A model generated the notes under the pieces. It had not been told where the DNA came from. It made no database searches and saw only the letters and a list, made by a program, of their open reading frames with translations. 64,000 nt of DNA from Rhodospirillaceae bacterium (GTDB taxonomy: Bacteria; Pseudomonadota; Alphaproteobacteria; MPNO01; UBA2964): positions 153,222 through 217,221 of the forward strand of contig PBIN01000009.1 in assembly GCA_002720855.1 (NCBI GenBank), read 5' to 3'. The translations under genes were made by a program, and so were the position numbers. Of the stretch, positions 2,833-51,038 are shown piece by piece (the stretch's first letter is position 1; each line of letters begins with the position of its first letter).

Positions 2833-2834
2833 CC

Positions 2835-4259
2835 ATGTCGATCGACCTAAATGCGAGAATTCCCAATAATGTGGACCTTGCTGAGGATCGCCGTCTTCAA
2901 CGTGCTCTGGAATCCTGGCAACCGAGCTTTATCAACTGGTGGAAAGAGCTCGGTCCCGAAGGAACGCTCAATTACGATGTGTATCTGCGAACGGCTGTAA
3001 GCGTCGAAGCCCAAGGCTGGGCGCATTTCGGTTATGTCAAAATGCCTGACTATCGCTGGGGTATTTTTGTTGCTCCGCCCGTTGAAGGGCGCACCATTCC
3101 GTTTGGTGAACACAAGGGCCAACCAGTATGGGACGAAGTGCCGGGCGAGTATCGCTCATCGCTGCGCCGGCTCATCGTGACGCAAGGCGATACTGAACCC
3201 GCATCTGTTGAGCAGCAGCGTTTGCTTGGTCTGACAGCACCGTCGCTGTACGACCTTCGAAATCTGTTCCAGGTCAATTGCGAAGAGGGGCGTCATCTCT
3301 GGGCAATGGTCTATCTGCTCCACGCTTATTTTGGACGCGATGGCCGCGAAGAGGCAGAGATGATGCTTGAACGGCATTCCGGCGATGTCGACAAGCCGCG
3401 CATTCTCGGCGCTTTCAATGAGGAAACACCCGATTGGTTGTCTTACTTCATGTTCACCTTCTTCACCGATCGCGATGGCAAGTATCAATTGTCATCGCTT
3501 GCTGAATCCGGCTTCGATCCGCTTGCTCGGACCTGTCAGTTTATGCTGACCGAGGAAGCGCATCACATGTTTATCGGTACAACCGGTATTATGCGGGTCG
3601 TGACACGAACCTGCGAAGTCATGGCTGAGTTAAAGACCGACGATCCGGAAAAGGTCCGGGCGGCGGGTGCCATCGATTTGCAGACATTGCAGAAGTATTT
3701 GAATTTTCATTACAGCGTGTCCCTTGATCTGTTCGGGCAGGAGGTCTCAACCAACGCCGCGAACTACTATACGGCTGGGCTTAAGGGCCGTTTCGAAGAG
3801 TCAAAGATTGAGGACGACCATGTGCTCAAAGATGATGTTGCACATCTCACAATGTTTGAAGATGGCGCTATCAAGGAAATCGAATACAACGCGCTGCTGG
3901 CTGTAAATGAACGGCTTCGGGACGACTACGTCACCGATTGTCAGCTTGGCGTCTCGCGCTGGAATAAAGTTATGAGGCGCCATAAGGTCGATTTCGAGCT
4001 GAAGCTGCCTCATCGTGGTTTTCACCGTTCGATAGGCACCTTTTCCGAAGGGAATATCACACCGGAAGGCGAGGTCATCAGCAAGGAAGAATGGAAGAAG
4101 AATGAGGATAAATGGCTGCCCTCACAGGCCGACCGTGAGTTCGTTATCTCGTTGCAAAGTGCCTGCATTGAGCCCGGCAAGATCGCCAGCTGGGTCGCAC
4201 CGCCAAGCCGCGGCATCGATGGTCATCCCTTCGATTACGAATACGTCCGGTTTGGTTGA
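2835..4259 (+). CDS. boxB: Benzoyl-CoA 2,3-epoxidase oxygenase component (BoxB-like diiron protein).
   Basis: 474 aa with a diiron-type E..H signature (EEGRHLWAMVYLLH, TEEAHHMF). Its start is 3 nt after the boxC stop, and it has an RBS AGAGGG. Confidence 0.75.
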   Translation: MSIDLNARIPNNVDLAEDRRLQRALESWQPSFINWWKELGPEGTLNYDVYLRTAVSVEAQGWAHFGYVKMPDYRWGIFVAPPVEGRTIPFGEHKGQPVWDEVPGEYRSSLRRLIVTQGDTEPASVEQQRLLGLTAPSLYDLRNLFQVNCEEGRHLWAMVYLLHAYFGRDGREEAEMMLERHSGDVDKPRILGAFNEETPDWLSYFMFTFFTDRDGKYQLSSLAESGFDPLARTCQFMLTEEAHHMFIGTTGIMRVVTRTCEVMAELKTDDPEKVRAAGAIDLQTLQKYLNFHYSVSLDLFGQEVSTNAANYYTAGLKGRFEESKIEDDHVLKDDVAHLTMFEDGAIKEIEYNALLAVNERLRDDYVTDCQLGVSRWNKVMRRHKVDFELKLPHRGFHRSIGTFSEGNITPEGEVISKEEWKKNEDKWLPSQADREFVISLQSACIEPGKIASWVAPPSRGIDGHPFDYEYVRFG

Positions 4260-4282
4260 TCTGAAATGAGTTTTTCATCATA

Positions 4283-4310
4283 ACCCCCGCCATCGAGCGG
4301 GGGTTTTTGT
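4283..4310 (+). terminator. Rho-independent terminator after boxB.
   Basis: Stem ACCCCCGC, loop catcga, stem GCGGGGGT, then TTTTTGTT. Confidence 0.6.
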
Positions 4311-5509
4311 TACGCTCCACCGGGCAGGCCGGTGTTTTTGCCATAAAGCCATTCAACACCGGCGTATGGATTGCCTTCCTTCTTACCACCCAGTAGCAGG
4401 TTGCGGAGCTCACGGGTGACGCCTTCGGCGTGATATATGTCGCCATAGAAACGAGCGGTGAGCTGCACGCGGCCGGTGCGCATGTAACGCTTGCCGGGAT
4501 AATCGGCGAAGGTCCTTTCGATGTCGCCGTCATATTCCTCGAGTAAGTCGACCAGGCAGACCGCATCCTCCATCGCCATTCCCGCACCTGCTGCGAGATA
4601 TTGCAGCATCGGGTGTGCTGCATCGCCGATCAGGGTAACCCGGCCCTTAGTCCATTCCTTCACTGGTATCCGGTCGCACAGCACCCACATTTTCCAGACA
4701 TCGATCTTGTTCAGGAGAGCCTGCACTTCGGGCCTGACATCCTTGAAATGCTCAAAGAGCTCTTTGGAGTCGCCATATTCGTCCCATCCTTCGACATATT
4801 TCTGGCTATGAAAGACGGCGACGATGTTGAACAGCTCGCCGCGCCGCAGCTTGTAGTGGACAAGGTGGTTGCGAGGCCCGGCCCATAGCACAACATCCTC
4901 CATCCAGTTTTCGAGTTCCGGGGGTACCTCATCGATTGGCAGTACTGCGCGATAGGCAATGTGGCCGGAGACGATGGGGTCGCCATCGCCGATTATGCTC
5001 TCTCGAATTTTCGACCAAAGCCCGTCAGCACCGATAAGCGAGGAGCCCTCAACCGTGTCACCGCTTTCAGTTTCAACAGAGACGCTATCGCCATTATCCG
5101 TATAGCCGGTAACACCCGAACTGGTGCGGAGGTCGATCTCCTCCATGCTCGCGCAGGCATCGTAAAGTACCTTGTGAAGATCAGCGCGATGAATAACGGC
5201 GTATGGTTTACCGAAATGTGATTCCAGCCGGCGACCAAGCTCCATGCGCAAGACCTCTTCGCCGGTAAGACTATCCATCATGATAATATGCTCAGGGAAA
5301 TGAGCGATCTCGTGCATCGCTTTGGTAACCTGCAACCTGTCAAACATGCGATGCGTATTGGGTCCCAACTGGATCCCTGCACCTATTTCCCCAAATTCAG
5401 GCGCCTGTTCCAAAACGATACTGCGGCGACCTTTTATCGCGAGCATTCTGGCGGCAGCCAATCCGCCGATACCGCCACCGGCAATTATGATGGGTTTCGC
5501 GTCGCTCAT
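4310..5509 (-). CDS. FAD-dependent aromatic monooxygenase (3-hydroxybenzoate 6-hydroxylase / salicylate hydroxylase family).
   Basis: N-terminal GGGIGG dinucleotide fold and C-terminal GDAAHPMLQYLAAGAGMAMEDA motif; 399 aa. Confidence 0.7.
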   Translation of the reverse strand: MSDAKPIIIAGGGIGGLAAARMLAIKGRRSIVLEQAPEFGEIGAGIQLGPNTHRMFDRLQVTKAMHEIAHFPEHIIMMDSLTGEEVLRMELGRRLESHFGKPYAVIHRADLHKVLYDACASMEEIDLRTSSGVTGYTDNGDSVSVETESGDTVEGSSLIGADGLWSKIRESIIGDGDPIVSGHIAYRAVLPIDEVPPELENWMEDVVLWAGPRNHLVHYKLRRGELFNIVAVFHSQKYVEGWDEYGDSKELFEHFKDVRPEVQALLNKIDVWKMWVLCDRIPVKEWTKGRVTLIGDAAHPMLQYLAAGAGMAMEDAVCLVDLLEEYDGDIERTFADYPGKRYMRTGRVQLTARFYGDIYHAEGVTRELRNLLLGGKKEGNPYAGVEWLYGKNTGLPGGA

Positions 5510-5573
5510 GCTTCTCTCTTTTGTCTCTTCTCACAGCGCTGTAGAATTCTGCCACTCAATAAGGACAGTAAAA

Positions 5574-7148
5574 ATGGCAAATAATCAAATCACCGTCGAT
5601 GACAGCCAAATACCGGCAAACATCTCCTTTTCCAAGAGTTTTAATGTCGCGGTGCCGTTTATCGACAGGCATCTAGAGGAAGGGCGTGAGAATAACATCG
5701 CAATTCAGGGTGATTTTGGCACGGTGAGCTATGCCGCTTTGGCGGAGAACGTCAATCGGTGTGGTAATGCATTGGCGGGCCTTGGGCTGTCCGGCAGCGA
5801 TCGAGTGTTGATGATGGTGAAGGATTGCCCTGAGTTCTTTTATATTTTCTGGGGCGCTATCAAGGCGGGCTTTGTGCCGGTGCCGCTCAATACGTTGCTT
5901 CGCTCAAATGACTACCAGTTCATGATCGAGGATTCCGAATGTGCGGCGGTAATTTATAGCGTTGAATTTGCAGCAGAAGTTGAAACCGCGCTGGCGGGCG
6001 CCGAACGCAAACCTGACCATGTGATGCTGACGGAGGGCGAAGAGTCGATTTCGGCCCTGATGGCGGATGCCGACACGGCGCTAGATGCTGCACCCGCGAC
6101 TGCGGAAGATGATTGCTTCTGGCTTTATTCTTCAGGTTCGACGGGGCGGCCAAAAGGCACAGTTCATGCCCATAAGGATATCCCTGTCACTTGTATTCAT
6201 TATGCGGTGGGAGTTCTCGGCATTCGTGAGGATGATGTTTGTTTTTCGGCGGCCAAGCTGTTCTTTGCGTATGGGCTCGGCAATGCCATGACGTTTCCGC
6301 TCTGGGTCGGCGCGACCGCTGTACTCTCCGGCTTGCCGCCGAGCCCAGCCATGACGTTTGAAGTGATCGAGCAAAACAAAGCTACAATTTATTACGGCGT
6401 GCCGACGCTCTATGCGGCTCAGCTGCAAGCAATGGAATCCAACATGCCCGACCTTTCTTCCGTTCGCGCGTGCGTTTCAGCGGGCGAAGCGTTGCCGGGC
6501 GACATTCTAAGGCGATGGAAGGATAAAACCGGCGACTCGATCCTTGACGGGATCGGTTCGACAGAAATTCTTCACATCTTTATTTCCAATTCGGAAGATG
6601 ACGTGAAACCAGGTGCGAGCGGACGCTTGGTGCCTGGCTATGAAGCGAAAATCGTTGGTGAGGAGAATGAAATTCTGCCGCAGGGAGAGAGCGGTGCCTT
6701 GTGGATCAAAGGTGGGTCGATTGCTAAATATTACTGGAACAATCCTGAAAAAACGGCTGCCACTATGCAGGACGAGTGGATCAATACAGGCGATACCTAT
6801 TATCAGGACGAGGACGGCTATTTCGTTTATTGCGGCCGCAATGATGACATGATGAAAGTTGGCGGCATTTGGTGTTCACCGTTTGAAATTGAAGCCAAGC
6901 TCATCGAGCATCCGGCGGTATTGGAGGCAGCAGTCGTGGCACGGGCGGACGATGACGAGCTGATCAAACCGGAAGCTTTCATTATCGTTGCCGAAGGGGC
7001 GACCGGCGGCGATGAGCTAGCCGCTGAATTGCTGGAGCATTGCAAGGACGGTCTTGCACGGTACAAATATCCGCGCTGGTTTAATTTTGTCGAAGAGCTG
7101 CCCAAGACCGCGACGGGCAAAATTCAGCGCTTCCGGCTGAGGAACTAG
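5574..7148 (+). CDS. Aromatic acid-CoA ligase (benzoate-CoA ligase family).
   Basis: The track ORF at 5322 is an N-terminal over-extension that overlaps the opposite-strand gene. The ATG at 5574 follows an AAGGA RBS. The product reads MANNQITVDD..., has YSSGSTGRPKG, and a C-terminal PKTATGKIQR. Confidence 0.7.
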   Translation: MANNQITVDDSQIPANISFSKSFNVAVPFIDRHLEEGRENNIAIQGDFGTVSYAALAENVNRCGNALAGLGLSGSDRVLMMVKDCPEFFYIFWGAIKAGFVPVPLNTLLRSNDYQFMIEDSECAAVIYSVEFAAEVETALAGAERKPDHVMLTEGEESISALMADADTALDAAPATAEDDCFWLYSSGSTGRPKGTVHAHKDIPVTCIHYAVGVLGIREDDVCFSAAKLFFAYGLGNAMTFPLWVGATAVLSGLPPSPAMTFEVIEQNKATIYYGVPTLYAAQLQAMESNMPDLSSVRACVSAGEALPGDILRRWKDKTGDSILDGIGSTEILHIFISNSEDDVKPGASGRLVPGYEAKIVGEENEILPQGESGALWIKGGSIAKYYWNNPEKTAATMQDEWINTGDTYYQDEDGYFVYCGRNDDMMKVGGIWCSPFEIEAKLIEHPAVLEAAVVARADDDELIKPEAFIIVAEGATGGDELAAELLEHCKDGLARYKYPRWFNFVEELPKTATGKIQRFRLRN

Positions 7149-7172
7149 GCTGCAAACTGATCGAGGGAAAAT

Positions 7173-8495
7173 ATGGTCGATCTTACAACAAAAGGACCGG
7201 TGGCCTTAAACGGGCTGACGGCATCTGAAGCCTCGGCGAAGCTAGAGGCAGGCGAAATCACCTCTGAAGCGCTGACCCGCGATTGTCTGGATCGCATTGC
7301 CGCTCGCGAGGGCGCAGTACAAGCTTGGGATTATATCGATCCGGACTATGCTCTATCTCAGGCAAAGGCGCTGGATAACGAACCCCGCCGAGGACCATTG
7401 CACGGCGTACCGGTCGGAATAAAAGACATCTTCGATACCAAGGACATGCCGACGGCCCATGGATTCGAGCCTTATCAGGGTAAGGAATTCGGTATCGACT
7501 CCGTTTGTGTGGAGCAGCTACGCGCCGCTGGCGTGGTAATCATGGGCAAGACGGTAACAACAGAATTTGCCTGTCCAAAGCCGCGCCATACGCTTAACCC
7601 GCATGATCCGACGCGGACACCTGGAGTTTCGTCCAGTGGTTCCGCGGCGGCTGTTGCGGATTTCATGATCCCTTTGGCAAACGGCACTCAAACCGGTGGC
7701 TCGGTAATTGGTCCGGCTGCCAACTGTGGTGTTTATGGCTACAAGGCGAGCCTCGATGGCATTGATCGCGGACGGTTCCGTCACTGCAAAAAATCGATCG
7801 ATACGATAGGCCTGTTTGCACGGTCAATCGCAGACCTTGTGCTGATGCGTCAGGTTCAAACCGGCACTGCACCCGGTGTCGCCGCTGCAAATCCGCGCAT
7901 CGCGTTTCTGCGGGCACCGAATTGGGAAGATGCCGAGCCGCCGATGCAGGCGGCCGTCGAACAGGTCGCTGAGATTCTGTCCGAAGCCGGTGCGTCTGTA
8001 AGTGACTTCAATCTGCCACAGGTTTTCACCGATATCATACCCGATGCCGCGGTCATCAATGCGTGGGAAGCAGCGGTTATGCTCGAAGAGGAAATTCGCG
8101 ACAATTATGACAGCTTCAACGATCACAATACCGAACGCATGGAGTGGGTAAAAACGATTGGCGAGGACGACTATCTTAATGCCGGCAAGGCGATGGACAA
8201 TGCGCGCGCTGAAATGGATTCAGTATTTGATGATTACGACCTGATCCTGTCGCCAAGCCTGCCCGGCGAAGCACCCGTCGGTCTCACTGAAGTCCGCACA
8301 GCAACCTTCGCACGGCTCTGGACACAGATGTATACGCCGTCAGTAAACTTCCCTCTATTTGAAGGCCCCGATGGATTGCCGGTCTGTTTTCAGCTGGTTG
8401 GTAAGCGCGATACCGATGATACGCACCTAGCGAATGCGCTTTGGGCGGACGAAAAGTTACGGGCAGCGCTGGGCAATATCCCGGTAAAAGTCTAA
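7173..8495 (+). CDS. Amidase (amidase-signature family).
   Basis: GVSSSGSAAAVA within a Gly/Ser-rich amidase-signature region. A GAGGGA RBS is present. Confidence 0.75.
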   Translation: MVDLTTKGPVALNGLTASEASAKLEAGEITSEALTRDCLDRIAAREGAVQAWDYIDPDYALSQAKALDNEPRRGPLHGVPVGIKDIFDTKDMPTAHGFEPYQGKEFGIDSVCVEQLRAAGVVIMGKTVTTEFACPKPRHTLNPHDPTRTPGVSSSGSAAAVADFMIPLANGTQTGGSVIGPAANCGVYGYKASLDGIDRGRFRHCKKSIDTIGLFARSIADLVLMRQVQTGTAPGVAAANPRIAFLRAPNWEDAEPPMQAAVEQVAEILSEAGASVSDFNLPQVFTDIIPDAAVINAWEAAVMLEEEIRDNYDSFNDHNTERMEWVKTIGEDDYLNAGKAMDNARAEMDSVFDDYDLILSPSLPGEAPVGLTEVRTATFARLWTQMYTPSVNFPLFEGPDGLPVCFQLVGKRDTDDTHLANALWADEKLRAALGNIPVKV

Positions 8496-9707
8496 CTATT
8501 CGAACAGCCAATAATACCCATAGGCCACAATGATGGCCGGTATCCCGCTATAAAGCGTCGCTATTAGGGCGGCTTTGGGCGCCATTGCGATTGCCGGGAA
8601 CAGGGCGTCACCGTCATTACTGATCGCGTTCCCTATTTCTGCAGAGAAGGGTACAAGGCCATTGAGATACATCGCGGCGACAACGACTTGAGGGCCGCAG
8701 CCCGGAATAAATCCAACTAAAATGGCAATCAAGGGGACGAGAGGCGCCCAGGTTTTGAACAATACCTGCAGGTCGACACCGGTGAAGTGCACGCCAAGCT
8801 CATAAATCAAATAGGCGAAGGCGACCCAGACGGTGACAAAGCAAGTGTCGCCGACGACGCGCGCAGGTGCGTCGCCCAGACGTCCTGTCCCCGCAGACGC
8901 CCAGCTCAGATTTGCATTGTCTTCGGAAATTGACTCAGGGCGGATAGGTGAGACCATGCCCCACAGCATTAACGAAACAACGGCGCCAATAAGCCCTACC
9001 CAAACAACTGTTTCAGTGCCCATGAATGTCCCAAAGATCGCTTCAGTGTCGGCCTGAAATGCAACAAATCCGCCAAAAAATAGGCCGGGCACCAGAAATA
9101 GGGTCCAGAGATACCGCCATGCCCGTGAGTCAACGCGCCGTATACAGGGGCTGCAGGTGGGTTCCGAACCATCGCCCTTGTAGCGAAGAAAATCAGTTCC
9201 ATGGATTGCATCAACGGCGTATCCCGATAGGACGCCGACAACGAAACCAATTGCGAAAATCGAAAGCCCTTCTCCAGGTGCCTGGGCCAACAGTAGAAAG
9301 GCCGCATCGCCCATTGTTGCCGTCAGAACGGAAACTACGGAACCAAAGCTAATCCCCCCGCGAATATATTGTGTGATGACCATAATGGCGCCGCCGCAAC
9401 CAGGCAGCGCACCCAAACCAGCGGCGATGGGAACCTGCCAGACATGGTGTTTCGCCAGGAGAGATGTGACGTCAATTTTGTACCAGGCTTCAAGCGAGTA
9501 AAAGATCGCCAGGGTTGCGGCAACAAAGACAGTTACCTGCAGAAACGCATCCGACAGGCTTTGCGCCATGATCTTTGCTGCATCAGTTGAAAGCGCGGCG
9601 AGCAACGCGAGTCCGAATAGCACGGCAAGCCGGATTGGACCAAAAGCGTTGGCCCACCTTGCTGTGCCTTCGAGGCTACGCCGCGCAACAATGCTAAGCG
9701 ATGTCAT
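8496..9707 (-). CDS. Polytopic inner-membrane protein with an internal duplication; candidate metal transporter.
   Basis: 403 aa, very hydrophobic. It carries two repeated units: PGCGGAIMV...GDAAF and PGCGPQVVV...GDALF. It is divergent from a DtxR/MntR regulator. Confidence 0.55.
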   Translation of the reverse strand: MTSLSIVARRSLEGTARWANAFGPIRLAVLFGLALLAALSTDAAKIMAQSLSDAFLQVTVFVAATLAIFYSLEAWYKIDVTSLLAKHHVWQVPIAAGLGALPGCGGAIMVITQYIRGGISFGSVVSVLTATMGDAAFLLLAQAPGEGLSIFAIGFVVGVLSGYAVDAIHGTDFLRYKGDGSEPTCSPCIRRVDSRAWRYLWTLFLVPGLFFGGFVAFQADTEAIFGTFMGTETVVWVGLIGAVVSLMLWGMVSPIRPESISEDNANLSWASAGTGRLGDAPARVVGDTCFVTVWVAFAYLIYELGVHFTGVDLQVLFKTWAPLVPLIAILVGFIPGCGPQVVVAAMYLNGLVPFSAEIGNAISNDGDALFPAIAMAPKAALIATLYSGIPAIIVAYGYYWLFE

Positions 9708-9769
9708 TGGAGGTTTTCCTCAGTTTTGCAGCCGCTCTTAGAGCCAAAGTGAACGGTTCTTTCCAAAAG

Positions 9770-9785
9770 TTTAGCCTTGGCTAAA
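9770..9785. promoter_or_regulatory. Palindromic operator-like site TTTAGCCttGGCTAAA in the divergent intergenic region.
   Basis: Perfect 7-2-7 inverted repeat. It is flanked by AAAATACTA direct repeats and lies between the membrane-protein gene and the MntR-like gene. Confidence 0.4.
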
Positions 9786-9843
9786 AATACTAGAAAATAC
9801 TAAAACATTGTCAAGACTCTAAACAATAACTTATGTTATTTTT

Positions 9844-10332
9844 ATGAAAAATAACGACAACACAGAGGAAGATATGAGTTCGGACCCAAAAGGGGGTGGC
9901 GCAGTTTCTGCGCACATGACACCAGACAAACAGGCGAGCCATTTTAAACGTGCCCGCGAGGCACGGGAGTCCGAGATAATCGAGGACTACGTCGAGCTTA
10001 TCGCTGATTTGATTGATGAGCATGGTGAAGCTCGTGCCGTCGATATTGGCAAACGTTTGGGCGTTACGGGCGCGACGGTCAACAAAATGATCGCACGGTT
10101 AAAAATGATGGATCTCGTCAATGCGGAACCTTATCGGTCAATATTTTTGACTGATGAAGGCCGTAAAATGGCCGAGGCATCCAGGGCCCGACACCATATT
10201 GTTGTAGCTCTCCTGAGAGCCGTCGGTGTGGATGAAGCGACGGCGTGGGCCGACGCAGAGGGGATGGAGCATTGCTGCAGTCCCGAAACCCTAGCGGCTT
10301 TTGCGGAATTCGTTAAGAAACAAGGCAGCTAG
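9844..10332 (+). CDS. mntR: DtxR/MntR-family metal-dependent transcriptional regulator.
   Basis: EDYVELIADLIDEHGEARAVDIGKRLGVTGATVNKMIARL matches the DtxR-type HTH and the metal-binding C-terminal half. The true start may be the internal Met at 9916. Confidence 0.7.
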   Translation: MKNNDNTEEDMSSDPKGGGAVSAHMTPDKQASHFKRAREARESEIIEDYVELIADLIDEHGEARAVDIGKRLGVTGATVNKMIARLKMMDLVNAEPYRSIFLTDEGRKMAEASRARHHIVVALLRAVGVDEATAWADAEGMEHCCSPETLAAFAEFVKKQGS

Positions 10333-10369: not shown

Positions 10370-11248
10370 TTGGCTATGAGATATTGTCAGGGTCCTGACC
10401 CCCAAACCAAAACACCAAACTTTATCGCACCACCAAAAGCCTGCGATGCGCATTGCCATGTCTTTGGGCCGGAAGCGAAATTTCCGTTTGCTGAGGGCCG
10501 AACCTATACACCGCCTGATTCCCCGTTTGAAGCTATGCAGATATTGCAAAAGACACTGGGTATCGAGCGCGCCGTGATTGTACAAGCAACCTGCCATGGA
10601 ACCGACAACACGGCGGCACTGGATGCTATAGCGCGGTCCGAAGGCCGCTATCGCGGCGTTGCTATCGTTGATGACAGCTTTTCCGATGATGATTTTAAGC
10701 AGCTTGATGATGGCGGGATGCGGGGCATACGATTCTCGTTCGCACGCCATATAGGTAACGCGCCGGACTTTTCATTGGTTCGCCGCATAACGGAGCGCGT
10801 GGCACCCTTGGGCTGGCATGTTGTGATCTATATGGAAGCACCGGATATTGTTGAAAATGCTGACACATTGGCAGATCTTCCATTGCCGGTAGTGATAGAC
10901 CATATGGGGCGTGTAAAGACCAAAGACGGCGTCGAACAAGAGGCCTTTCAGCTTCTGCTTGGCCTCCTGCGTGACAAGGAAGATTTCTGGGTAAAGATTT
11001 GCGGTGCGGAACGAATTTCGTCGGGTGGTGCACCTTTTGAAGATGCCGTGCCGTTTGCGCAGGCCTGCATTGAAGCAGCGCCGGATCGTGTTTTATGGGG
11101 TACGGATTGGCCGCATCCCAATATTGAGGGGCTCATGCCCAATGACGGCGATTTAATGAATCTGCTGGCGCTTCACGCCCCGGATGAGGCCACACGCAAT
11201 CGTATTCTCGTTGACAACCCGGCAAGGCTATACGGTTTTCCAGACTAG
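10370..11248 (+). CDS. Amidohydrolase-2 family hydrolase, LigI-like (2-pyrone-4,6-dicarboxylate lactonase-like).
   Basis: 292 aa, matching LigI length. N-terminal CDAHCHVFGP and C-terminal WGTDWPHP are hallmarks of the metal-independent amidohydrolase-2 fold. Confidence 0.6.
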   Translation: MAMRYCQGPDPQTKTPNFIAPPKACDAHCHVFGPEAKFPFAEGRTYTPPDSPFEAMQILQKTLGIERAVIVQATCHGTDNTAALDAIARSEGRYRGVAIVDDSFSDDDFKQLDDGGMRGIRFSFARHIGNAPDFSLVRRITERVAPLGWHVVIYMEAPDIVENADTLADLPLPVVIDHMGRVKTKDGVEQEAFQLLLGLLRDKEDFWVKICGAERISSGGAPFEDAVPFAQACIEAAPDRVLWGTDWPHPNIEGLMPNDGDLMNLLALHAPDEATRNRILVDNPARLYGFPD

Positions 11249-12039
11249 CTCTTGAGGTCCTGACCGACGTCCCAGGTAACGACGAGCTTTTCCATTGCGA
11301 CAACGGCGGCATACAGGACAACACCAACGATGCTGAGGACGGTTAATGCCGCCATTAGGAGCGGTGTGTCGATATTGCCTTCGGCAAAAACGATGAGATA
11401 GCCCAACCCTCTTTGCGCAGTGACAAACTCTGCAACGATAATTCCGATGACAGCAAAGGTGATGCCGATCTTTAATCCACTGAAGATATAGGGCAGGGCG
11501 TTGGGAAACTCGATCTTACAGAAAACTGTCCAACGATTGGCGCTAAAGGAATGAGCCATGCGGACCATAAGCGGGTCGGTGCTAAGAATGCCAGCATATG
11601 TGTTCACAACCATCGGGAAAAAGGCGATGACGAAGGCCAGGAGCACCCGAGACAGTGTGCCCAAGCCGAACCAGACAATGAACAGTGGTGCGAGCGCAAC
11701 CTTGGGCACGACCTGAAACGCAACGACCAGCGGATAAACGCTATTGTGAAAGACCGGGAAAAAAGCCAGTAAAACGCCTAGACCCATTCCAACGATTACC
11801 GCAAGCGCAAACCCCAGCAGGCATTCGCTGGTCGTGGGCCAGGTATGAATGGCAAGCAATTCCCAATGTTTGAAAATTGTTTGAATAATTTTTACCGGCG
11901 TCGGCAAAATTGCTTCGGGTACGTTGAACGAAACCACCCAAACATGCCAAATGACGAGCATTAAGAGCGCTATCGCAGTTGGGCCTGCGATCTGCCCCGC
12001 CATTGAAAATAATTTGCTGTCCGAATTGTTGTTGGCCAT
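11245..12039 (-). CDS. ABC transporter permease (NitT/TauT family).
   Basis: Six hydrophobic segments and an EAA-like loop. It overlaps the stop of the upstream gene by 4 nt. Confidence 0.8.
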   Translation of the reverse strand: MANNNSDSKLFSMAGQIAGPTAIALLMLVIWHVWVVSFNVPEAILPTPVKIIQTIFKHWELLAIHTWPTTSECLLGFALAVIVGMGLGVLLAFFPVFHNSVYPLVVAFQVVPKVALAPLFIVWFGLGTLSRVLLAFVIAFFPMVVNTYAGILSTDPLMVRMAHSFSANRWTVFCKIEFPNALPYIFSGLKIGITFAVIGIIVAEFVTAQRGLGYLIVFAEGNIDTPLLMAALTVLSIVGVVLYAAVVAMEKLVVTWDVGQDLKS

Positions 12040-12057
12040 GGCTCTAACTTCCGGCGT

Positions 12058-12822
12058 CTAGTGTTCGATCAAGCCGCGCAAATGCGCGACATATTCGTTG
12101 AATTCAGGCGTTTCCTCGATAGAGAGTTCGCGTGGTCGCGGCAGGTCGATCGTTACGATTTCGCTGATCACCGCAGGGCGGGGTGACATCACGAAGACAC
12201 GGTCTGACAGGAACACGGCCTCGCGAATACTGTGCGTTACAAACAACACAGTCTTTTTATATTCTTCCCAGATCCGCAAAAGCTCCTGATTCATTAAATC
12301 ACGAGTCATTGCATCAAGAGCGCTGAACGGCTCATCCATAAGGAGAAGGTTCGGATTATGAATAAGCGCTCGGCAAATTGCGACACGTTGTTGCATCCCG
12401 CCAGAGAGTTCGCTCGGTACATTATCTGCAAACCCTGACAAACCTGTCATTTCGAGGAGTTCGTTCGCTCTCTCAATATAATCGTCGGTCTTCAACCCGA
12501 GACTCTCGATGGGGAACAGGACATTCTTCAGGATCGTCCGCCACGGCATTAGAACAGGTGCCTGGAAAACGACGCCTGTATCGCGGCGCGGCTTGGAGAC
12601 CGCCTCGCCACCCACCGACACGGTACCCGACGTTATCGGTAACAACCCGCCGACAATCATCAACAAGGTGCTTTTGCCGCATCCGCTGGGTCCAAGGATG
12701 GAAATAAATTCACCTTCCGCGACTTCCATCTGGACTTCGCGAATAGCCTCAATTTCGTCGCGACGCGTTTGGTATGTCTTGCGGAGATTTTCGACCCGAA
12801 CATGGGCGTTGGCTTCAGTCAT
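12058..12822 (-). CDS. ABC transporter ATP-binding protein.
   Basis: Walker A GPSGCGKST, signature LSGGMQQRVAICRAL and Walker B LLLMDEPFSALD. Confidence 0.85.
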   Translation of the reverse strand: MTEANAHVRVENLRKTYQTRRDEIEAIREVQMEVAEGEFISILGPSGCGKSTLLMIVGGLLPITSGTVSVGGEAVSKPRRDTGVVFQAPVLMPWRTILKNVLFPIESLGLKTDDYIERANELLEMTGLSGFADNVPSELSGGMQQRVAICRALIHNPNLLLMDEPFSALDAMTRDLMNQELLRIWEEYKKTVLFVTHSIREAVFLSDRVFVMSPRPAVISEIVTIDLPRPRELSIEETPEFNEYVAHLRGLIEH

Positions 12823-12908
12823 TTTAGGAGGTTACCAATCAAAACTAATTACGCAAACGACCCGTTTCCCCAATTTGGGGAAACGGGTGTCTGAGACAAA
12901 TGAAACGC

Positions 12909-14036
12909 TTACGATTTAGCCGGATCGTTGTTGGCCGAGAGCTTCTTGGCTTTCGCCCATTCGGCTTTAGACAGCTTGATGTTACCAGCAAATTTATTGG
13001 TAAATAGCTTGTCGATCGCCGGGACCTTCTTGGCATTCATGTACTTGATGACCACGTCGCGGGTCCGCGTCTGATCCTTTTCGTCCATCCAGCCAAGACC
13101 GTTCTTTTCTACAGCTGGGCCAATCGACAGGAAGTTGGTGTTGCCCGAATGGATCAATAGCAGTTCGCGCGACTTGGTTTTCAATTCAGGCCGTGCCGCA
13201 ATCATGTAATCCAAAGACTTGCCAGGATCGAGTAATTGCAGTTTCAGACCTTCCATGGCGCCGTCAACGATCGCCTGAACCAGGGCTGGCTCGTTCTTGA
13301 TCATGTCGGAACGCGTGATCAGTCCGAGGTCAAGCGTTTGCAATCCATAATCGGCATACATGAAATGAACAGCAGGTGTCTTGCTGGCGAGCGACGCTGC
13401 GTTACTGACATAGTAGGTGCCGGTGCAGTCGGCCTGCTTATTGAGAACTGAGCTGATGAGCTTACTCGGATGCACAAGATTGCGTTTGATCTTGCCAATA
13501 TCGACCCCTGCGGCCCGTGCAAAGCCAGGCATCATGAGTGTGTCGCCTGAAGCAGCGGCACCAACCAATGTAGCGCCTTCAAGGTCTTTGGGAGTTTTGA
13601 TCCCGCTATCCTTGCGGCAGGAGATCGCAATAGGACTCTTTTGCAGTTTCGCACCAATGGCGACGACATCGAGGCCTTTAGAAACGCCGTTAACCGCAAC
13701 GCCATAGCTGGCTTCCGCAAAATTAACAGTCTTCGAGGAAATTGCTTTGATCGCCGCGCCCGATCCGTATCCGCGTTGAATGGAAACGTCGAGACCGCGT
13801 TTTTTCCAATAATCTGCCGCAGCAGCAAACAGGAACGTATGTCCGCCAACGAAAAGCCAGGGCAGCATGAATTGAACTTTGCGCATTTTCGACGCACCGA
13901 CTTCGCTTACGATGGCGGGGGCAACGCCCGTCGCCAGCATAACGCCAAGACCAGTACCGCCTTTAACAATTGTCCGGCGCGTAACGTTTTTTGCAGCGCC
14001 CTTGTCAGTCTTCTTAGTCATCTGTCTCCCTCTCAA
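12909..14036 (-). CDS. ABC transporter periplasmic substrate-binding protein (NMT1/SsuA-like) with a Tat-type signal.
   Basis: N-terminal TRRTIVKGGTGLGVMLATG twin-arginine motif. It is first in the operon with the ATPase and permease. Confidence 0.7.
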   Translation of the reverse strand: MRGRQMTKKTDKGAAKNVTRRTIVKGGTGLGVMLATGVAPAIVSEVGASKMRKVQFMLPWLFVGGHTFLFAAAADYWKKRGLDVSIQRGYGSGAAIKAISSKTVNFAEASYGVAVNGVSKGLDVVAIGAKLQKSPIAISCRKDSGIKTPKDLEGATLVGAAASGDTLMMPGFARAAGVDIGKIKRNLVHPSKLISSVLNKQADCTGTYYVSNAASLASKTPAVHFMYADYGLQTLDLGLITRSDMIKNEPALVQAIVDGAMEGLKLQLLDPGKSLDYMIAARPELKTKSRELLLIHSGNTNFLSIGPAVEKNGLGWMDEKDQTRTRDVVIKYMNAKKVPAIDKLFTNKFAGNIKLSKAEWAKAKKLSANNDPAKS

Positions 14037-14093
14037 TAACGGTTTCTATCTTTATGAGCCCTAAGAAACTCGGACCACGAAGAAACTCTACGC

Positions 14094-14120
14094 TGATTCC
14101 CGCATAATGCGTAGGGGAAT
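14094..14120. promoter_or_regulatory. 27-bp nested inverted repeat GATTCCC-GCATAATGCG-TAGGGGAATC in the promoter region of the ABC operon.
   Basis: Outer arms GATTCCC/GGGAATC enclose an inner palindrome CGCATaATGCG. It lies 58 bp upstream of the binding-protein gene start. Confidence 0.35.
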
Positions 14121-14139
14121 CTACAAAAATAGAGCAGCC

Positions 14140-14724
14140 CTAACCGATAGGAATTTCCATTGATTTTTGGACGGCCGGCCGCTGGGTAAGGGCGTCCACC
14201 CATCGAACGAGATTGGGGTACTCATTGAGATCAATGAAATCGAAAGCGAATGCCGCAAATCTTCCGATCGCCATCATGTCAGCAACAGAATAGTTCCCCG
14301 CAAAATATTCGTTTTCTGCGAGGTGATGATTTATGGCTTCCAGAAGAGTACGACACTGTCCTTCCAGATCGCGTGCATGATTAAGGTTCGAAAAACTGAC
14401 CGAAACATTTGTGGCGAGATAGATAAGCCATTGTTTTACCTGCCATCTTTCTTCTTCGGTTTCGCCGATAAACTGGCCAGTTTTTCCGCCGATATATTCC
14501 AGGATAGCTGCGGACTCCATTAGATGAATCGGCTCGCCACCGGGTCCGTCTGGGTCAATCAGGCAGGGCACTTTGCCGCCCGGGCTGATTTTTAAATATT
14601 CCGGTTCTTTGTTTTTGCCGCTGTGCGGGTCAACCGCGATCAAATTATAGGGTGTGCCGGTTTCTTCTAAAATGATGATTGGCCGACGGCCGTTCGCAGA
14701 CTTCCAACAATAAAGATCGATCAT
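14140..14724 (-). CDS. Glutathione S-transferase.
   Basis: 194 aa with a thioredoxin-like N-domain (VPCLID, ESAAILEYI) and a helical C-domain. Confidence 0.75.
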   Translation of the reverse strand: MIDLYCWKSANGRRPIIILEETGTPYNLIAVDPHSGKNKEPEYLKISPGGKVPCLIDPDGPGGEPIHLMESAAILEYIGGKTGQFIGETEEERWQVKQWLIYLATNVSVSFSNLNHARDLEGQCRTLLEAINHHLAENEYFAGNYSVADMMAIGRFAAFAFDFIDLNEYPNLVRWVDALTQRPAVQKSMEIPIG

Positions 14725-14919
14725 GTCTTAAATTTCCAAAATGTTACGAGACCTGTTCGCTATACGATTTTGGCCGTTACGTTCTCATAAATGTTTAGGT
14801 CAGCTAAACCGGAATTCTTTTGCGGCGCAAGGCCGCTTGTCGGATTGTGCCTGCGGCGTTCGATCAGTACACTGCGGCCACCAAAACGAAATCTCCAGGG
14901 AATTCCTACAGGAAGTAAA

Positions 14920-15828
14920 ATGGCAGACATACCGAGACTCAATGGCGTGATTGGCGCACTCGCTGCTGGGAAGCCAGCCTTTACCGCTTTTTCGACACCC
15001 GATGTGACGTCAGCGCTCGCATACAGCACCAACACGGGCTATGACGGCATCGTGTTCGAAATGGAGCACAATCCGTGGGACGGACCGGTGCTGCGCGATT
15101 GCTTGCAGTACATGCTCAATCGCGGACAGATCGCAAAATCAGCTTCTCTCGCACCGACGGTGACCCCAATGGTTCGGGTGCCGCCCAACGGCAACGAGAT
15201 GGCGCAATGGCAGGCCAAGCAAGCACTGGACCTTGGCGTTTACGGCGTGGTCTGGCCGCATATCAGCTCGGTTGAAGAAGCTTATAACGCGGTGGCGGCC
15301 TGTCGGTATCCACGGATGAGCGACGCACCGCTTTATGAGCCTGCGGGTATTCGTGGGGATGGACCAACTGGCGCTGTGCGATATTGGGGTATCAGTCAGC
15401 AGGAATATTATCAGCGTGCCGATGTCTGGCCTCTGGCACCAGAAGGCGAAATTCTTGTCATTTTGATGATCGAAGATACCAAGGGGATGGCGGCATTGCC
15501 CGATATTCTCAAGGACGTGCCGGGCGTCGGTGCCGTTTTGATCGGCGAGGGAGACTTAAGTCAGGAACTCGGCTATCCCCGCCAATACGAGCATCCAGTC
15601 GTTCTCGAAGCAATGGCGGAGATCGTTGCGAATTGTAAGGAAAATAGCGTCGCTGTCGGGCACCCGCATGTGAACGCCGGAAATGTGGAGCGCATTTTGG
15701 AAGAGGGTTACACCTTCCTGATGGCTGCACCGGTCCGCTCGACGCCTGGGTTGGACAAAGGTCTGGAACTTTCGGGACGTGCGGATGGCGGTGGTGATAA
15801 ATCCACCGAACCCGCGCCGTCTTATTGA
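14920..15828 (+). CDS. HpcH/HpaI-family class II aldolase (4-hydroxy-2-oxo-acid aldolase).
   Basis: The track ORF at 14791 is over-extended. The ATG at 14920 follows an ACAGGAAG RBS. The product reads MADIPRLNG... and contains MIEDTKGMAALPDIL. Confidence 0.7.
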   Translation: MADIPRLNGVIGALAAGKPAFTAFSTPDVTSALAYSTNTGYDGIVFEMEHNPWDGPVLRDCLQYMLNRGQIAKSASLAPTVTPMVRVPPNGNEMAQWQAKQALDLGVYGVVWPHISSVEEAYNAVAACRYPRMSDAPLYEPAGIRGDGPTGAVRYWGISQQEYYQRADVWPLAPEGEILVILMIEDTKGMAALPDILKDVPGVGAVLIGEGDLSQELGYPRQYEHPVVLEAMAEIVANCKENSVAVGHPHVNAGNVERILEEGYTFLMAAPVRSTPGLDKGLELSGRADGGGDKSTEPAPSY

Positions 15829-15850
15829 TTAATTTAGGGAGTAACTTCAA

Positions 15851-16876
15851 ATGATTATCGATTGCCACGGCCACTATACAACCGAGCCGGAAGCGCTGAC
15901 CGATTACCGCAAAGAACAGTTAGCGGGTGTCGACAATGATCCCAACTTTGTGCCGTCCGAAGCGAGTTTTGAATGCAGCGACGATGAAATGCGCGAACGG
16001 CTTGAGCCAGCTCAAATCAAATTGCAACAGGACCGTGGTTCCGATTTAACAATCTTTTCGCCCCGTGCTGTTGGGATGGGCCATCATCTCGGTACTGCGA
16101 AAACCAGCGAATACTGGGCGACGATTTGTAACAATATGGTGCGCCGGGCCTGCGACCTTTATCCGGATAACTTCGTACCGGTATGCCAGTTGCCGCAATA
16201 TCCCGGCATTGAGCCCAGAAACTGCATTGCCGAGCTGGAACGCTGTGTCAATGAGATGGGTTTTATTGGGTTGAACCTGAATCCAGACCCTTCTGGAGCT
16301 ATGTGGACTGATCCACCGATCACAGACAAATGGTGGTATCCAATTTACGAGAAAATGGTCGAGCTTGACGTCCCCGCGATGTTGCATGTCAGCGGATCGT
16401 GCAATCCGAACTTCCATCATACCGGATCCCACTATCTCTGCGGTGACACGACAGTGTTTATGCAGTTGCTCATGTCAGACCTGTTTAAGGAATTCCCGAC
16501 ACTGAAATTCATTATTCCCCACGGTGGTGGTGCCGTGCCGTATCATTGGGGCCGCTTCCGGGGTCTTGCACAAGATATGGGCCGTCCGCCATTGGATGAA
16601 CTTTTGCTCAACAATGTGTTTTTCGACACTTGCGTTTATCACCAGGCGGGAATCGATTGCATGCTCAAAGTGATTCCCACGAAAAATATTTTGTTCGCTT
16701 CAGAAATGGTCGGTGCAGTGCGCGGTGTCGATCCCGAAACCGGATATAACTACGATGACACCAAACGTTACATCGATGCGGCCGATATTACAGACGCCGA
16801 AAGAGCGCAGATTTTCTCGGAAAATGCGTTCAATGTGTTCTCTCGTCTGGAAGGCGCAATCGGCGGCCGCAAATAG
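15851..16876 (+). CDS. Amidohydrolase-2 family hydratase/decarboxylase, LigJ-like (4-oxalomesaconate hydratase-like).
   Basis: 341 aa, N-terminal MIIDCHGHYT and C-terminal FASEMV. It sits 22 nt after the aldolase gene. Confidence 0.6.
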   Translation: MIIDCHGHYTTEPEALTDYRKEQLAGVDNDPNFVPSEASFECSDDEMRERLEPAQIKLQQDRGSDLTIFSPRAVGMGHHLGTAKTSEYWATICNNMVRRACDLYPDNFVPVCQLPQYPGIEPRNCIAELERCVNEMGFIGLNLNPDPSGAMWTDPPITDKWWYPIYEKMVELDVPAMLHVSGSCNPNFHHTGSHYLCGDTTVFMQLLMSDLFKEFPTLKFIIPHGGGAVPYHWGRFRGLAQDMGRPPLDELLLNNVFFDTCVYHQAGIDCMLKVIPTKNILFASEMVGAVRGVDPETGYNYDDTKRYIDAADITDAERAQIFSENAFNVFSRLEGAIGGRK

Positions 16877-16896: not shown

Positions 16897-16934
16897 GAAA
16901 CCGGTCGTAATTTTACGCGGCCGGTTTCTTTTTG
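16897..16934 (+). terminator. Rho-independent terminator.
   Basis: Stem GAAACCGG, 16-nt loop, stem CCGGTTTC, then TTTTTG. Confidence 0.6.
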
Positions 16935-16989
16935 AAATTCATCGATCCCGACAAAAAATTTCATCTATGTGAAATTTTTTTTCCACAGC

Positions 16990-21451: not shown

Positions 21452-21985
21452 ATGTCATTGCCTATACCGAAAACGGCAGCAGAAGCGCTGCTCATGCGCA
21501 TGAAATTTTGCGGAATTGACTACGTCTTTTCCAACGGTGGGACTGATTTTGCTTCAATCATCGAAGCGTATGCACGCGGGGCGACCGCGGGGTTGCCAAT
21601 GCCGGAGCCCATCATCGTAGCGCATGAAACTGCAGCCGTCGCGATGGCGACAGCCGTGCAAGCGACCCGAATTGGCTTGGTTATCTTCGCGATCCCCTTC
21701 TTGTTTGCCTATAACCCGATAATGCTGATTGTCCCTGAAGGGGGTGCGGCCTGGGATACTGTTGCTTTCCTCTTCGTACTGATAAAGCTCGCGGCCATTG
21801 TTTACATGCTTTCAAGTGCCGCATCGGGTTTCGACAAGACGAAAATGCACGTGCTCGAATCCATTTTGCGTATCGCAATTGCCTTGATCATTATTCACCC
21901 TGATATGTTGATCAGCGGATGTGCGATTGGTGCCGCGATAGCGATTTTTGCCGGGCATCGAATGCTAAAGTTAAGTCGCACATGA
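21452..21985 (+). pseudogene. Chimeric ORF. About 70 aa of a thiamine-diphosphate enzyme N-terminal domain are fused to a hydrophobic C-terminal fragment of a membrane transporter.
   Basis: Residues 1-75 resemble a TPP-enzyme N-domain (AAEALLMRMKFCGIDYVFSNGGTDF...PIIVAHETAAVAMA). The sequence then switches abruptly, at about nt 21665, to transmembrane sequence (IGLVIFAIPFLFAYNPIML...). Confidence 0.4.
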
Positions 21986-46134: not shown

Positions 46135-46135
46135 G

Positions 46136-50083: not shown

Positions 50084-50403
50084 CTCTGTCTCCCTGAAAT
50101 GTCTCTAAGCGGACGTTAGGTTATTCACGCGCAAGCATACTCATTTTGGGCCAATATCCAAGCTGGTCGGCGCAAAAATTCCCAGCAGGAATGCGGTCAA
50201 ATTGCGACTAGATTGCTGTCGCTACCTTTCGGGACATAAAGAGGAATCAATGGTTTGTATCGGAACCGTCACGTTCTTATGACATGAAAGGCGTGAGATA
50301 AATAACGCCTTTGTTGGACATTTTACGTGGTTAACAGAACGTTTACGAAAACGGTCACATTATGTCTAAATATTTACCATGATTAGTTGGTGTTATTACT
50401 TAT

Positions 50404-51024
50404 ATGAAAATTCTTACAACGGCCGAAGCTGCCGATCTTCTAAAAATTAAGTCTGATACGCTCTATTCACTCGTTGAAAAAGAAGGTCTTCCAGGTGCAA
50501 AGGTAGGCAATCAATGGCGGTTTATCGAAGAAGATATCGTTAACTGGCTCTCTAGCAAACGGGATCGCAGGTCGGAGAACGCAGATTCCGTGTCGAAAAG
50601 CGAGTTCGAGTGGGTGTATCGCAGCCTGGTGGAAGCGACTTTCGACGCAGTTCTGGTTTCTGAAAATAATATCATCGCCGATTGCAACGACGCAGCGCCA
50701 TTGTTTTATGGATATCCAAAACAGGAATTAATCGGAAAATCTTTACACGACGTCATGGTTCCCGAGTTTCATGAGGAGTTGAATGAAACTTTGCGCCTTA
50801 GGCGAACTGGGATAATTCAACGCATTCATCGCCGAAGTGATGGAATAGTTATTCCGGTGGAGGTCTCTATAAAGTCCTTCGATCGCGATGGGGATATCGT
50901 CAGATTAGGGGCCATTAGAAGACTGACGCATCTAGACCCGGCGCTGTTATCTCCAAAGGTCCGGGAGGTTTTGGCCGGTTACGATGTGCAATCTATCACG
51001 CCTGGCAAGCTCTCCATTTCCTGA
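50404..51024 (+). CDS. Excisionase/MerR-type HTH domain fused to a PAS domain.
   Basis: The N-terminal 50 aa form a helix-turn-helix (AEAADLLKIKSDTLYSLVEKEGLPGAKVGNQWRF). A PAS-like core follows. Confidence 0.55.
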   Translation: MKILTTAEAADLLKIKSDTLYSLVEKEGLPGAKVGNQWRFIEEDIVNWLSSKRDRRSENADSVSKSEFEWVYRSLVEATFDAVLVSENNIIADCNDAAPLFYGYPKQELIGKSLHDVMVPEFHEELNETLRLRRTGIIQRIHRRSDGIVIPVEVSIKSFDRDGDIVRLGAIRRLTHLDPALLSPKVREVLAGYDVQSITPGKLSIS

Positions 51025-51038
51025 AGGTTTTCACTTTG

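Follow-up and report, generated by a model that had tools for sequence, protein, structure and literature searches.

An HpcH/HpaI-family aldolase as the conserved neighbor of LigJ, and a candidate substitute for LigK, in a Rhodospirillaceae bacterium

In the lower part of the 4,5-cleavage pathway of protocatechuate, as known from Sphingobium sp. SYK-6 (LigI-LigU-LigJ-LigK) and from Comamonas (pmd genes), 2-pyrone-4,6-dicarboxylate (PDC) is converted to pyruvate and oxaloacetate. In the characterized pathway LigU or GalD isomerizes 4-oxalomesaconate (OMA) to 2-keto-4-carboxy-3-hexenedioate (KCH) ahead of the hydratase LigJ, and an aldolase then acts on CHA (4-carboxy-4-hydroxy-2-oxoadipate). 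The gallate pathway (GalA-GalD-GalB-GalC in Pseudomonas putida KT2440, with a further example in Ralstonia) follows the same chemistry from OMA on and needs no 4-carboxy-2-hydroxymuconate-6-semialdehyde (CHMS) dehydrogenase. GalB is not known to be homologous to LigJ; the Ralstonia-type gallate cluster holds LigJ and LigK together with a gallate dioxygenase. All of these routes end in an aldolase of the RraA-like GalC/LigK type, and the characterized CHA aldolases, which have the RraA fold, have been described as convergent with HpaI (PMC5065237). Here we describe a gene cluster in a 64-kb stretch of DNA from the metagenome-assembled genome of a marine alphaproteobacterium, a Rhodospirillaceae bacterium (contig PBIN01000009.1; "the window" below, which gives the coordinates used and was the whole search space for local genes), in which a ligJ-type hydratase gene is accompanied by a gene for an aldolase of the unrelated HpcH/HpaI family. 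Full-text searches of the literature found no earlier description of an HpcH-type CHA aldolase; a 2026 SAR116 preprint that scores lig pathways by ligABCIJK, and that discusses gene loss and substitution, leaves such an aldolase unmentioned.

Our preferred reading, to which we give a probability of roughly 0.6, is that the window encodes a lower pathway of the protocatechuate 4,5-cleavage or gallate type, in a variant form with a non-orthologous CHA aldolase. A LigI-like lactonase would open PDC to OMA as the first step, the LigJ-type hydratase is predicted to hydrate KCH to (S)-CHA, and an HpcH/HpaI TIM-barrel aldolase, co-transcribed with ligJ, would cleave CHA to pyruvate and oxaloacetate in the last step, doing the job of the unrelated RraA-fold LigK/GalC. 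An ATP-binding cassette (ABC) importer and a glutathione transferase (GST) lie between these genes, apparently as a separate divergent operon inserted in this lineage, and would most likely bring in and process the aromatic substrate. In this scheme we infer the substrates of the aldolase and of the LigI-like protein, the ligand of the transporter, and an isomerization of OMA that would proceed with no local LigU. Compared with SYK-6 and Comamonas, LigJ (58–62% identity), the LigI-like lactonase (41–44%) and the proposed products pyruvate and oxaloacetate are alike, whereas an HpcH/HpaI TIM-barrel aldolase accompanies ligJ in place of LigK, the lactonase belongs to a sister clade, and LigU, LigAB and LigC are missing; tblastn found no homologs of LigA, LigB, LigC, LigK or LigU anywhere in the 64 kb.

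Genes were called by open reading frame (ORF) calling and Pfam and NCBIfam profile searches, and the nearest structures were taken from PDB matches. Every gene named in a first-pass annotation of this DNA was found in this way, and the features of the cluster are as follows:
10370–11248, plus strand: LigI-like lactonase, Amidohydro_2 family with the motif CDAHCHVF, a putative PDC hydrolase (292 aa as an ORF)
11245–12039, minus strand: permease of an ABC importer, NitT/TauT-type (Pfam BPD_transp_1)
12058–12822, minus strand: ATPase of the ABC importer (Pfam ABC_tran)
12909–14036, minus strand: periplasmic binding protein of the NMT1/THI5-SsuA type (Pfam NMT1, 103 bits)
14140–14724, minus strand: YfcG-like (Nu-class) GST (Pfam GST_N and GST_C)
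14766–14792, no strand: deletion scar at the site of a ~1-kb LigB-family gene in six relatives (from alignment to the related locus L014)
14791–15828 as an ORF, 14920–15828 as a gene, plus strand: HpcH_HpaI aldolase (PF03328; 302 aa)
15851–16876, plus strand: LigJ-like hydratase, Amidohydro_2 family, starting MIIDCHGHYT (341 aa)
16897–16938 (16897–16928 and the T-run after it), plus strand: predicted intrinsic terminator (hairpin) closing the aldolase-ligJ operon

All seven ORFs are intact. The LigI-like gene more likely starts at ATG 10376, which gives 290 aa and matches the calls in other assemblies, and the true start of the aldolase gene is ATG 14920, which is preceded by AGGAAG and gives a protein of 302 aa, the length found in all its homologs. 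The ligJ gene begins 22 bp past the aldolase stop codon with GGGAG 9 nt ahead of its ATG, and 20 nt beyond its own stop lies the terminator, whose stem has 12 pairs, 7 of them G-C, and runs into TTTTT. Because of the 22-bp gap, the GGGAG ribosome-binding site and the strong terminator 3′ of ligJ, the two genes form a bicistronic operon. The window's exact gene order recurs on 23 contigs from independent assemblies; its sequence has a further match in a Tara Oceans scaffold of 610,777 bp, and its proteins have been deposited as MBK18635–MBK18639. We also note that the stops of the LigI-like gene (plus strand) and the permease gene (minus strand) are convergent, with a 4-bp overlap at 11245–11248, and that in L014 the LigI-like ORF extends ~30 bp into the permease gene.

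The 341-aa protein can be identified as LigJ securely from its sequence. Its best PDB matches are the LigJ structures 2gwg (E 1e-147) and SYK-6 LigJ 6dxq (E 7e-140), which together with its conserved catalytic residues bears out the LigJ-like call made in the first-pass annotation; the next family, a LigY-type hydrolase, follows at E 1e-57, and ACMSD, LigW and γ-resorcylate-type decarboxylases at 1e-13 or weaker. It is 58–62% identical to LigJ proteins whose genes adjoin ligK. Equivalents of H8, H10, H178, H223 and E284 (SYK-6 numbering) are conserved, of which we take the four histidines to be the Zn ligands and E284 to be the catalytic Glu, an assignment that is said to go back to Hogancamp et al. 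2018. The motifs DCHGH, AMLHVSGS, IIPHGGG and FASEMVG are all found.

The 292-aa protein is probably LigI-like and a putative PDC hydrolase. It matches Pfam Amidohydro_2 with 208 bits, and its best PDB match is SYK-6 LigI 4d8l at E 9e-72, followed by another structure at 6e-30. Its identity is 41% to the LigI of SYK-6 and 44% to a Comamonadaceae (Acidovorax) LigI, whereas canonical LigI proteins are mutually 53–56% identical, and so it is best seen as a member of a sister clade of LigI. H31, H33, H180 and D248, which we take to be the metal-independent catalytic set of LigI, a cog3618 enzyme (the set was reportedly defined by Hobbs et al. 2012), are all kept, as are Y49, R124, Y156, R217 and H251. 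Most positions that contact the substrate are likewise kept. The proposal that this protein is LigI-like thus holds as far as the best structural match and the catalytic tetrad go, but at 41–44% identity it describes a sister clade only. The same proposal would have been refuted had the two amidohydrolases belonged to unrelated subfamilies, for example that of ACMSD; LigI and LigJ rank first in the respective PDB matches, and that ranking rules out an ACMSD-type or decarboxylase identity for either protein. On the NCBIfam model for 4-sulfomuconolactone hydrolase the LigI-like protein scores 295 bits, more than canonical LigI (187–217 bits), which means that it may act on another lactone. An identity as 4-sulfomuconolactone hydrolase itself is less probable: the score falls short of that model's cut-off (500) and the context favors PDC.

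The gene directly upstream of ligJ encodes what its sequence indicates is a pyruvate aldolase of class II, the metal-dependent kind, from an HpcH/HpaI subfamily of its own. The protein matches Pfam HpcH_HpaI (PF03328) with 84.3 bits against a cut-off of 25. On the NCBIfam models HpaI, GarL and RhmA it scores 74, 73 and 46 bits, respectively, so far under the equivalog cut-offs of 369, 407 and 441 that we place it in a separate subfamily. It lies outside the LigK/GalC family of HMG/CHA aldolases, with neither the RraA-like PF03737 fold nor membership in TIGR02798. Residues H50 and R86 align with the catalytic pair His45 and Arg70 of HpaI, and E185 and D212 with its metal ligands Glu149 and Asp175; all four are invariant in 34 homologs. 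In Foldseek comparisons an AlphaFold2 model (pLDDT 82.5, pTM 0.85) matches HpaI, HpcH, GarL, YfaU and SwHKA with TM ~0.8 and CoA-ester lyases with ~0.5; as modeled, the protein is a TIM barrel of the pyruvate-aldolase branch, not of the CoA-ester lyase branch. A subfamily-specific insertion at about residues 128–149 is modeled with low confidence.

HpaI/HpcH is the 4-hydroxy-2-oxoheptanedioate aldolase of the homoprotocatechuate pathway. With it, GarL and RhmA/YfaU the window aldolase shares the Pfam family, the fold, the His/Arg plus Glu/Asp metal site and, as proposed here, the role of a pyruvate-forming retro-aldolase at the end of a route. It differs from the HpaI, GarL and RhmA enzymes in sequence (24–29% identity), in the insertion at ~128–149, in having LigJ and not HpaH/HpcG as its partner, and in its proposed substrate, a tertiary-alcohol tricarboxylate. 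Aldolases of PF03328 catalyze pyruvate self-addition, accept ketone electrophiles, and make and break tertiary-alcohol aldols, so that CHA cleavage by a member of this family is feasible (PMC7610986). At E 1e-30 or better, the subfamily makes up 187 clusters at 50% identity among 1.84 billion representative proteins. In this representative search no Rosetta-stone fusion of the aldolase with LigJ was found; of the long matches examined as candidate fusions, one (P0167, 598 aa, 45% identity) is a secreted-looking protein with two tandem copies of the aldolase domain, and the remaining ones look like frameshifted calls.

The strongest evidence for a link between the aldolase and LigJ comes from gene neighborhoods. 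When one genome for each species was scanned with the aldolase alignment as query, relatives turned up in at least 580 genomes, mostly of uncultured marine and soil Alphaproteobacteria. The best 80 of these were taken with 10-kb flanks as loci (labeled with L numbers), and their neighboring genes were typed by tblastn with a reference panel. The aldolases of the 80 loci are 67–96% identical to the window's, and the loci span marine and soil Alphaproteobacteria, Xanthobacteraceae, Stellaceae, some Acidobacteriota and others. A LigJ homolog (57–94% identical) lies within ~2 kb of the aldolase gene in 71 of the 80, arranged as aldolase then ligJ in 21, divergently in 47 and as ligJ then aldolase in 3; at least four of the nine loci with no LigJ run off a contig edge. 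The genes that flank the pair are different and unrelated from genome to genome, and in many metagenome-assembled genomes from soil the pair stands alone amid housekeeping genes (ubiB, ubiE, coaBC, mutM and addB, for example). An adjacency shared by 71 of 80 genomes, each representing one species, is above what chance would give. The linkage holds for the aldolase core of at least 54% identity only; subfamily members at 41–50% identity are found mostly on contigs that are too short or in other gene contexts.

Apart from a weak RraA-family match in L030, no RraA-like LigK is present within 10 kb in any of the 80 loci, even at E 1e-5, whereas the canonical reference clusters pair LigJ with LigK (Acidovorax carolinensis L012, Novosphingobium KA1 L094 and Ralstonia L096). 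The idea that an HpcH-family enzyme stands beside LigJ instead of LigK was already part of the first-pass annotation, and it agrees with these 71 LigK-free loci. The aldolase-ligJ pair is a conserved core that is widespread in Alphaproteobacteria and beyond, and its conserved neighborhood is strong support for the view that the HpcH-type aldolase and LigJ are functionally coupled. The LigJ hydratase itself is known; what is new here is the HpcH-type aldolase as its conserved partner, in a variant of a known pathway.

Comparison of the LigJ proteins bears on whether the two kinds of partner aldolase serve the same reaction. In a neighbor-joining tree the LigK-linked LigJ proteins (SYK-6 and Rhodopseudomonas palustris 2gwg included) stand apart from 77 aldolase-linked ones, but the split is shallow, with a mean distance of 0.36 between the groups against 0.29 within the LigK-linked group. 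R. palustris LigJ was considered as a possible member of the aldolase-linked type, and this was ruled out by its clustering with the LigK-linked proteins. No column conserved at 90% or more in the 77 aldolase-linked proteins conflicts with residues invariant in four LigK-linked references, SYK-6 among them, and no residue in the alignment consistently separates the groups, there being tendencies only at positions 113 and 151. The simplest reading of these sequences is that one reaction is common to both LigJ groups and that the LigJ product would pass to the HpcH-type enzyme.

Several observations weigh against CHA cleavage by the HpcH-type enzyme. The aldolase is only 24–29% identical to any characterized or solved enzyme, the sister-clade LigI-like protein has His in place of R130 (an Arg sits one position earlier), and tblastn found no gene for an OMA tautomerase, LigU/GalD, in the window; a LigU/GalD-type gene is annotated in the reference clusters L094 and L096. 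Moreover, our view takes in 64 kb of the genome and LigK may lie elsewhere, in which case a normal LigK could cleave CHA and the HpcH-type protein would be accessory, decarboxylating oxaloacetate or cleaving another 4-hydroxy-2-oxoacid. Canonical ligJ and ligK are indeed sometimes far apart (Sphaerotilus and Cupriavidus records), oxaloacetate decarboxylation is common in class II pyruvate aldolases (PMC5065237), and L030, a 4.6-kb marine contig, carries the aldolase-LigJ pair beside LigU, LigI-like and RraA-like genes. The RraA-family gene of L030 (1883–2542, minus strand; 219 aa with an R-D-x-x-E motif) lies beside the LigI-like gene, directly after LigU and LigI-like, and is convergent on the aldolase-LigJ pair, so an RraA-family protein can coexist with that pair. 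Its product, however, scores 70 bits against 304.5 and 83 against 179 on two LigK models. Given also that no locus out of 80 has LigK within 10 kb as against 71 with the aldolase beside LigJ, and that the pair, alone amid housekeeping genes in many soil genomes, looks like a self-contained two-step unit, we regard a LigK elsewhere with an accessory aldolase as quite unlikely. The LigU of L030 clears its equivalog cut-off of 440 with 533 bits, and this neighborhood of LigU and LigI-like genes connects OMA chemistry with the LigI-like clade as well as with the aldolase-LigJ pair.

The other points on this side concern what the LigJ-aldolase pair acts on. At positions 113 and 151 (window numbering) most aldolase-linked LigJ proteins carry Gln and Tyr or Met, respectively, as opposed to the Met113 and His151 of all five LigK-type references compared (R. 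palustris 2gwg counted). In some Burkholderiaceae one replicon holds a LigK system and another an aldolase/LigJ-like one, which suggests that the two are not simply interchangeable, and betaproteobacterial clusters have a non-LigI amidohydrolase (23% identity, D248N) and a thiamine diphosphate (ThDP) enzyme. Because of these double systems and this non-LigI partner, the module may serve another upstream pathway in some organisms. Extended to the window, the same argument would make the LigJ-like protein and the HpcH-type aldolase a paralogous hydratase-aldolase module for a ring-fission product other than KCH/CHA, such as a differently substituted 2-oxo-hex-3-enedioate of an uncharacterized aromatic or heteroaromatic pathway. 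The variety of contexts is in keeping with this: catabolic clusters borne on plasmids and chromids combine the aldolase with LigJ-like genes (Paracoccus, Diaphorobacter, Acidovorax, Caballeronia), and the module is accompanied by a VOC dioxygenase, SDR and FAH in L011, by LLM and flavin reductase genes in L007, and in L008 and L010 by orphan binding proteins, a ThDP enzyme and a LigB-like gene. On the other hand, aldolase-linked LigJ proteins are 58–68% identical to bona fide LigJ, a level comparable to that among canonical LigJ proteins (62–88%), with no consistent residue difference, and in the window's own lineage the pair goes with a LigI-like lactonase, to which L030 adds the equivalog-level OMA tautomerase. 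We consider a module for another product somewhat unlikely in the window, and prefer CHA cleavage.

A precedent for such chemistry on another substrate exists in lumichrome catabolism, for which a 2025 study reconstituted a pyrone hydrolase, a hydratase and a retro-aldolase on 4-methyl analogs (PMC12746152). LumW, LumY and LumX resemble the proposed pathway in carrying out pyrone hydrolysis, hydration and retro-aldol cleavage on the 4-methyl analog of PDC/KCH/CHA, but differ in having a Co-dependent hydrolase and a cupin hydratase and in yielding pyruvate and acetoacetate; the family of LumX is unnamed (PMC12746152). A possible link of the present aldolase to a lum cluster, through a match on a Microbacterium plasmid (38% identity), was ruled out by a context that is not lum-like. 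The clusters L007–L011, from plasmids or chromids of betaproteobacteria and Paracoccus, recurrently contain, besides the aldolase and LigJ-like genes, NMT1-like and PhnD-like binding proteins that are orphans (mutual identity 32%, no permease adjoining), the non-LigI amidohydrolase (Asp248 to Asn) and an acetolactate-synthase-like ThDP enzyme.

The minus-strand genes between the LigI-like gene and the aldolase form one operon, of which the GST is the first gene in the window. Its NMT1, BPD_transp_1 and ABC_tran proteins make up a NitT/TauT-type importer, none of them reaching an equivalog: the permease is below all NCBIfam cut-offs (best SaoP, 122 bits against 295), and the ATPase scores 241 bits on SaoA against 360. 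The binding protein (370 aa as called in other assemblies) has a Tat-like TRRTIVK motif at its N-terminus, and its nearest solved structure, ThiY 3ix1, is remote (E 5e-8). The GST scores 99 bits on the YfcG-type NCBIfam model against a cut-off of 332, and the E values of its PDB matches 4mf7, 3gx0 and 5hfk range from 1e-26 to 1e-31. In the related locus L004 (aldolase 89% identical) the order MntR-LigI-aldolase-LigJ-RNR is contiguous with neither transporter nor GST, so the LigI-like, aldolase and LigJ genes are the local core and the minus-strand block is an insertion. The overall interpretation that had been offered from the sequence alone therefore stands for LigJ, for the LigI-like protein and for the HpcH aldolase as the partner of LigJ, but not in its reading of the importer and GST, which it had made part of a LigI-to-LigJ unit.

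The importer/GST block is present in six relatives, three from genomes (L014, L015, L020) and three from metagenomes (L098, L099, L104), and in all six a 336-aa LigB-family gene lies between the GST and aldolase genes, where it opens the minus-strand operon. Window positions 14700–14765 correspond to L014 8807–8872 and the window from 14793 onward to L014 from 9887 onward, while 14766–14792 stands in place of L014 8873–9886; the missing 1014 bp correspond to the L014 ORF 8860–9870 (minus strand). No remnant of a LigB-family gene is detectable in the window by tblastn. An assembly artefact is ruled out by the presence of the same GST-aldolase junction on 23 independent contigs, and for the same reason the layout without the LigB-family gene is a real genotype. 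The alignment indicates that the ring-cleavage gene is missing through a secondary, clean deletion in this population. The earlier statement that the cluster has no ring-cleavage dioxygenase is correct, tblastn having found no LigA or LigB homolog in the 64 kb, but the import of a pyrone that had been deduced from this does not follow: the LigB-family gene was ancestrally first in the operon in all six transporter-bearing relatives and was later precisely lost here, so its absence is no evidence for pyrone import.

The relatives' LigB-like protein matches LigB (E 7e-13) and is a distant relative of gallate dioxygenase (E 7e-9); its matches to PF02900 and NCBIfam models are weak. In three such proteins (L014 8860–9870, minus strand; L010 10989–11987; L008 10826–11812) the equivalents of His12, His195 and Glu242 are kept and His61 is replaced by Gln, the motif at this second iron ligand being NDQ or KDQ where LigB has NDH. 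For class III extradiol dioxygenases of the LigB family we take His12, His61 and Glu242 (LigB numbering) to be the Fe ligands and His195 to be catalytic. Since the operon of the relatives starts with a gene of ring-cleavage type, the importer/GST operon most likely imports and processes an aromatic substrate. A substrate that yields PDC or OMA with no need of LigC, for example 3-O-methylgallate or gallate, would fit as the upstream substrate in the block-bearing relatives, because their loci have a lactonase and no CHMS dehydrogenase; a route of this kind from 3-O-methylgallate/gallate to PDC or OMA occurs in Novosphingobium (PMC12710314). A part for the GST in isomerizing a ring-fission product can be imagined but is wholly speculative.

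The precise loss of the LigB-like gene also raises the question whether the cluster is a decaying remnant, its ring-cleavage gene gone and the rest no working pathway. Within the window the GST shows slightly more divergence (79–81% identity, against 82–86% among the relatives that keep the dioxygenase-like gene), as such decay might predict. The seven intact ORFs, transporter proteins as conserved between the window and its relatives as among those relatives, and the same layout on 23 contigs from independent samples all argue the other way; L004 keeps LigI-aldolase-LigJ with neither transporter nor dioxygenase, and many genomes keep the pair alone. We find decay very improbable. It is possible, though unsupported, that after the loss of the LigB-family gene ring-fission products are scavenged. 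A broader version, in which the pair is a widespread salvage module for ring-fission tricarboxylates of the PDC/OMA type released by other organisms, and this population a cross-feeding scavenger whose ABC system imports them, seems to us unlikely.

The rest of the window holds further genes that look catabolic. Upstream of the cluster, positions 1123–8495 carry a set of aerobic benzoyl-CoA (box) type: a BoxC-like enoyl-CoA hydratase (1123–2832), a BoxB-like PaaA_PaaC protein (2835–4259), a flavin adenine dinucleotide (FAD) monooxygenase (4310–5509, minus strand), an aryl-CoA ligase (5574–7148) and an amidase (7173–8495). Between this set and the LigI-like gene, on the same strand and ending 37 bp upstream of it, are genes for an ArsP_2-type exporter with ten transmembrane segments and an MntR regulator (8496–10332). 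The MntR-LigI synteny is kept in L004, L014, L015, L018 and L020, and in L001 MntR is ~7 kb from the aldolase. A second set of aromatic-acid type (49034–57978) comprises an Amidohydro_2 protein 25% identical to LigJ (49034–50083, minus strand), an NMT1_3 binding protein (52522–53673), a small ORF (54884–55354), the alpha subunit of a Rieske ring-hydroxylating oxygenase (55371–56675, minus strand) and a Gfo/Idh/MocA oxidoreductase (56785–57978). Hydantoinase/oxoprolinase A and B subunits (44041–47797) and a molybdenum hydroxylase large subunit (61092–63413) suggest that the region also encodes breakdown of N-heterocycles or lactams. The ORF at 21452–21985 was considered as a ThDP enzyme and rejected, its match (E 0.39) not being significant.

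If the HpcH-type enzyme is a CHA aldolase, the last step of the protocatechuate 4,5-cleavage and gallate pathways would have two evolutionarily unrelated solutions, the second of them common. Annotation that seeks LigK (in the style of KEGG or TIGR02798) would then score such organisms as pathway-incomplete, which would bias estimates of who mineralizes lignin- and polyphenol-derived carbon in oceans and soils. The enzyme would also be a new TIM-barrel aldolase for tertiary-alcohol tricarboxylates, useful for biocatalysis and for the engineering of PDC-accumulating strains. Finally, a ring-cleavage gene that has been cleanly lost in one population offers a natural instance of pathway truncation that lends itself to study.

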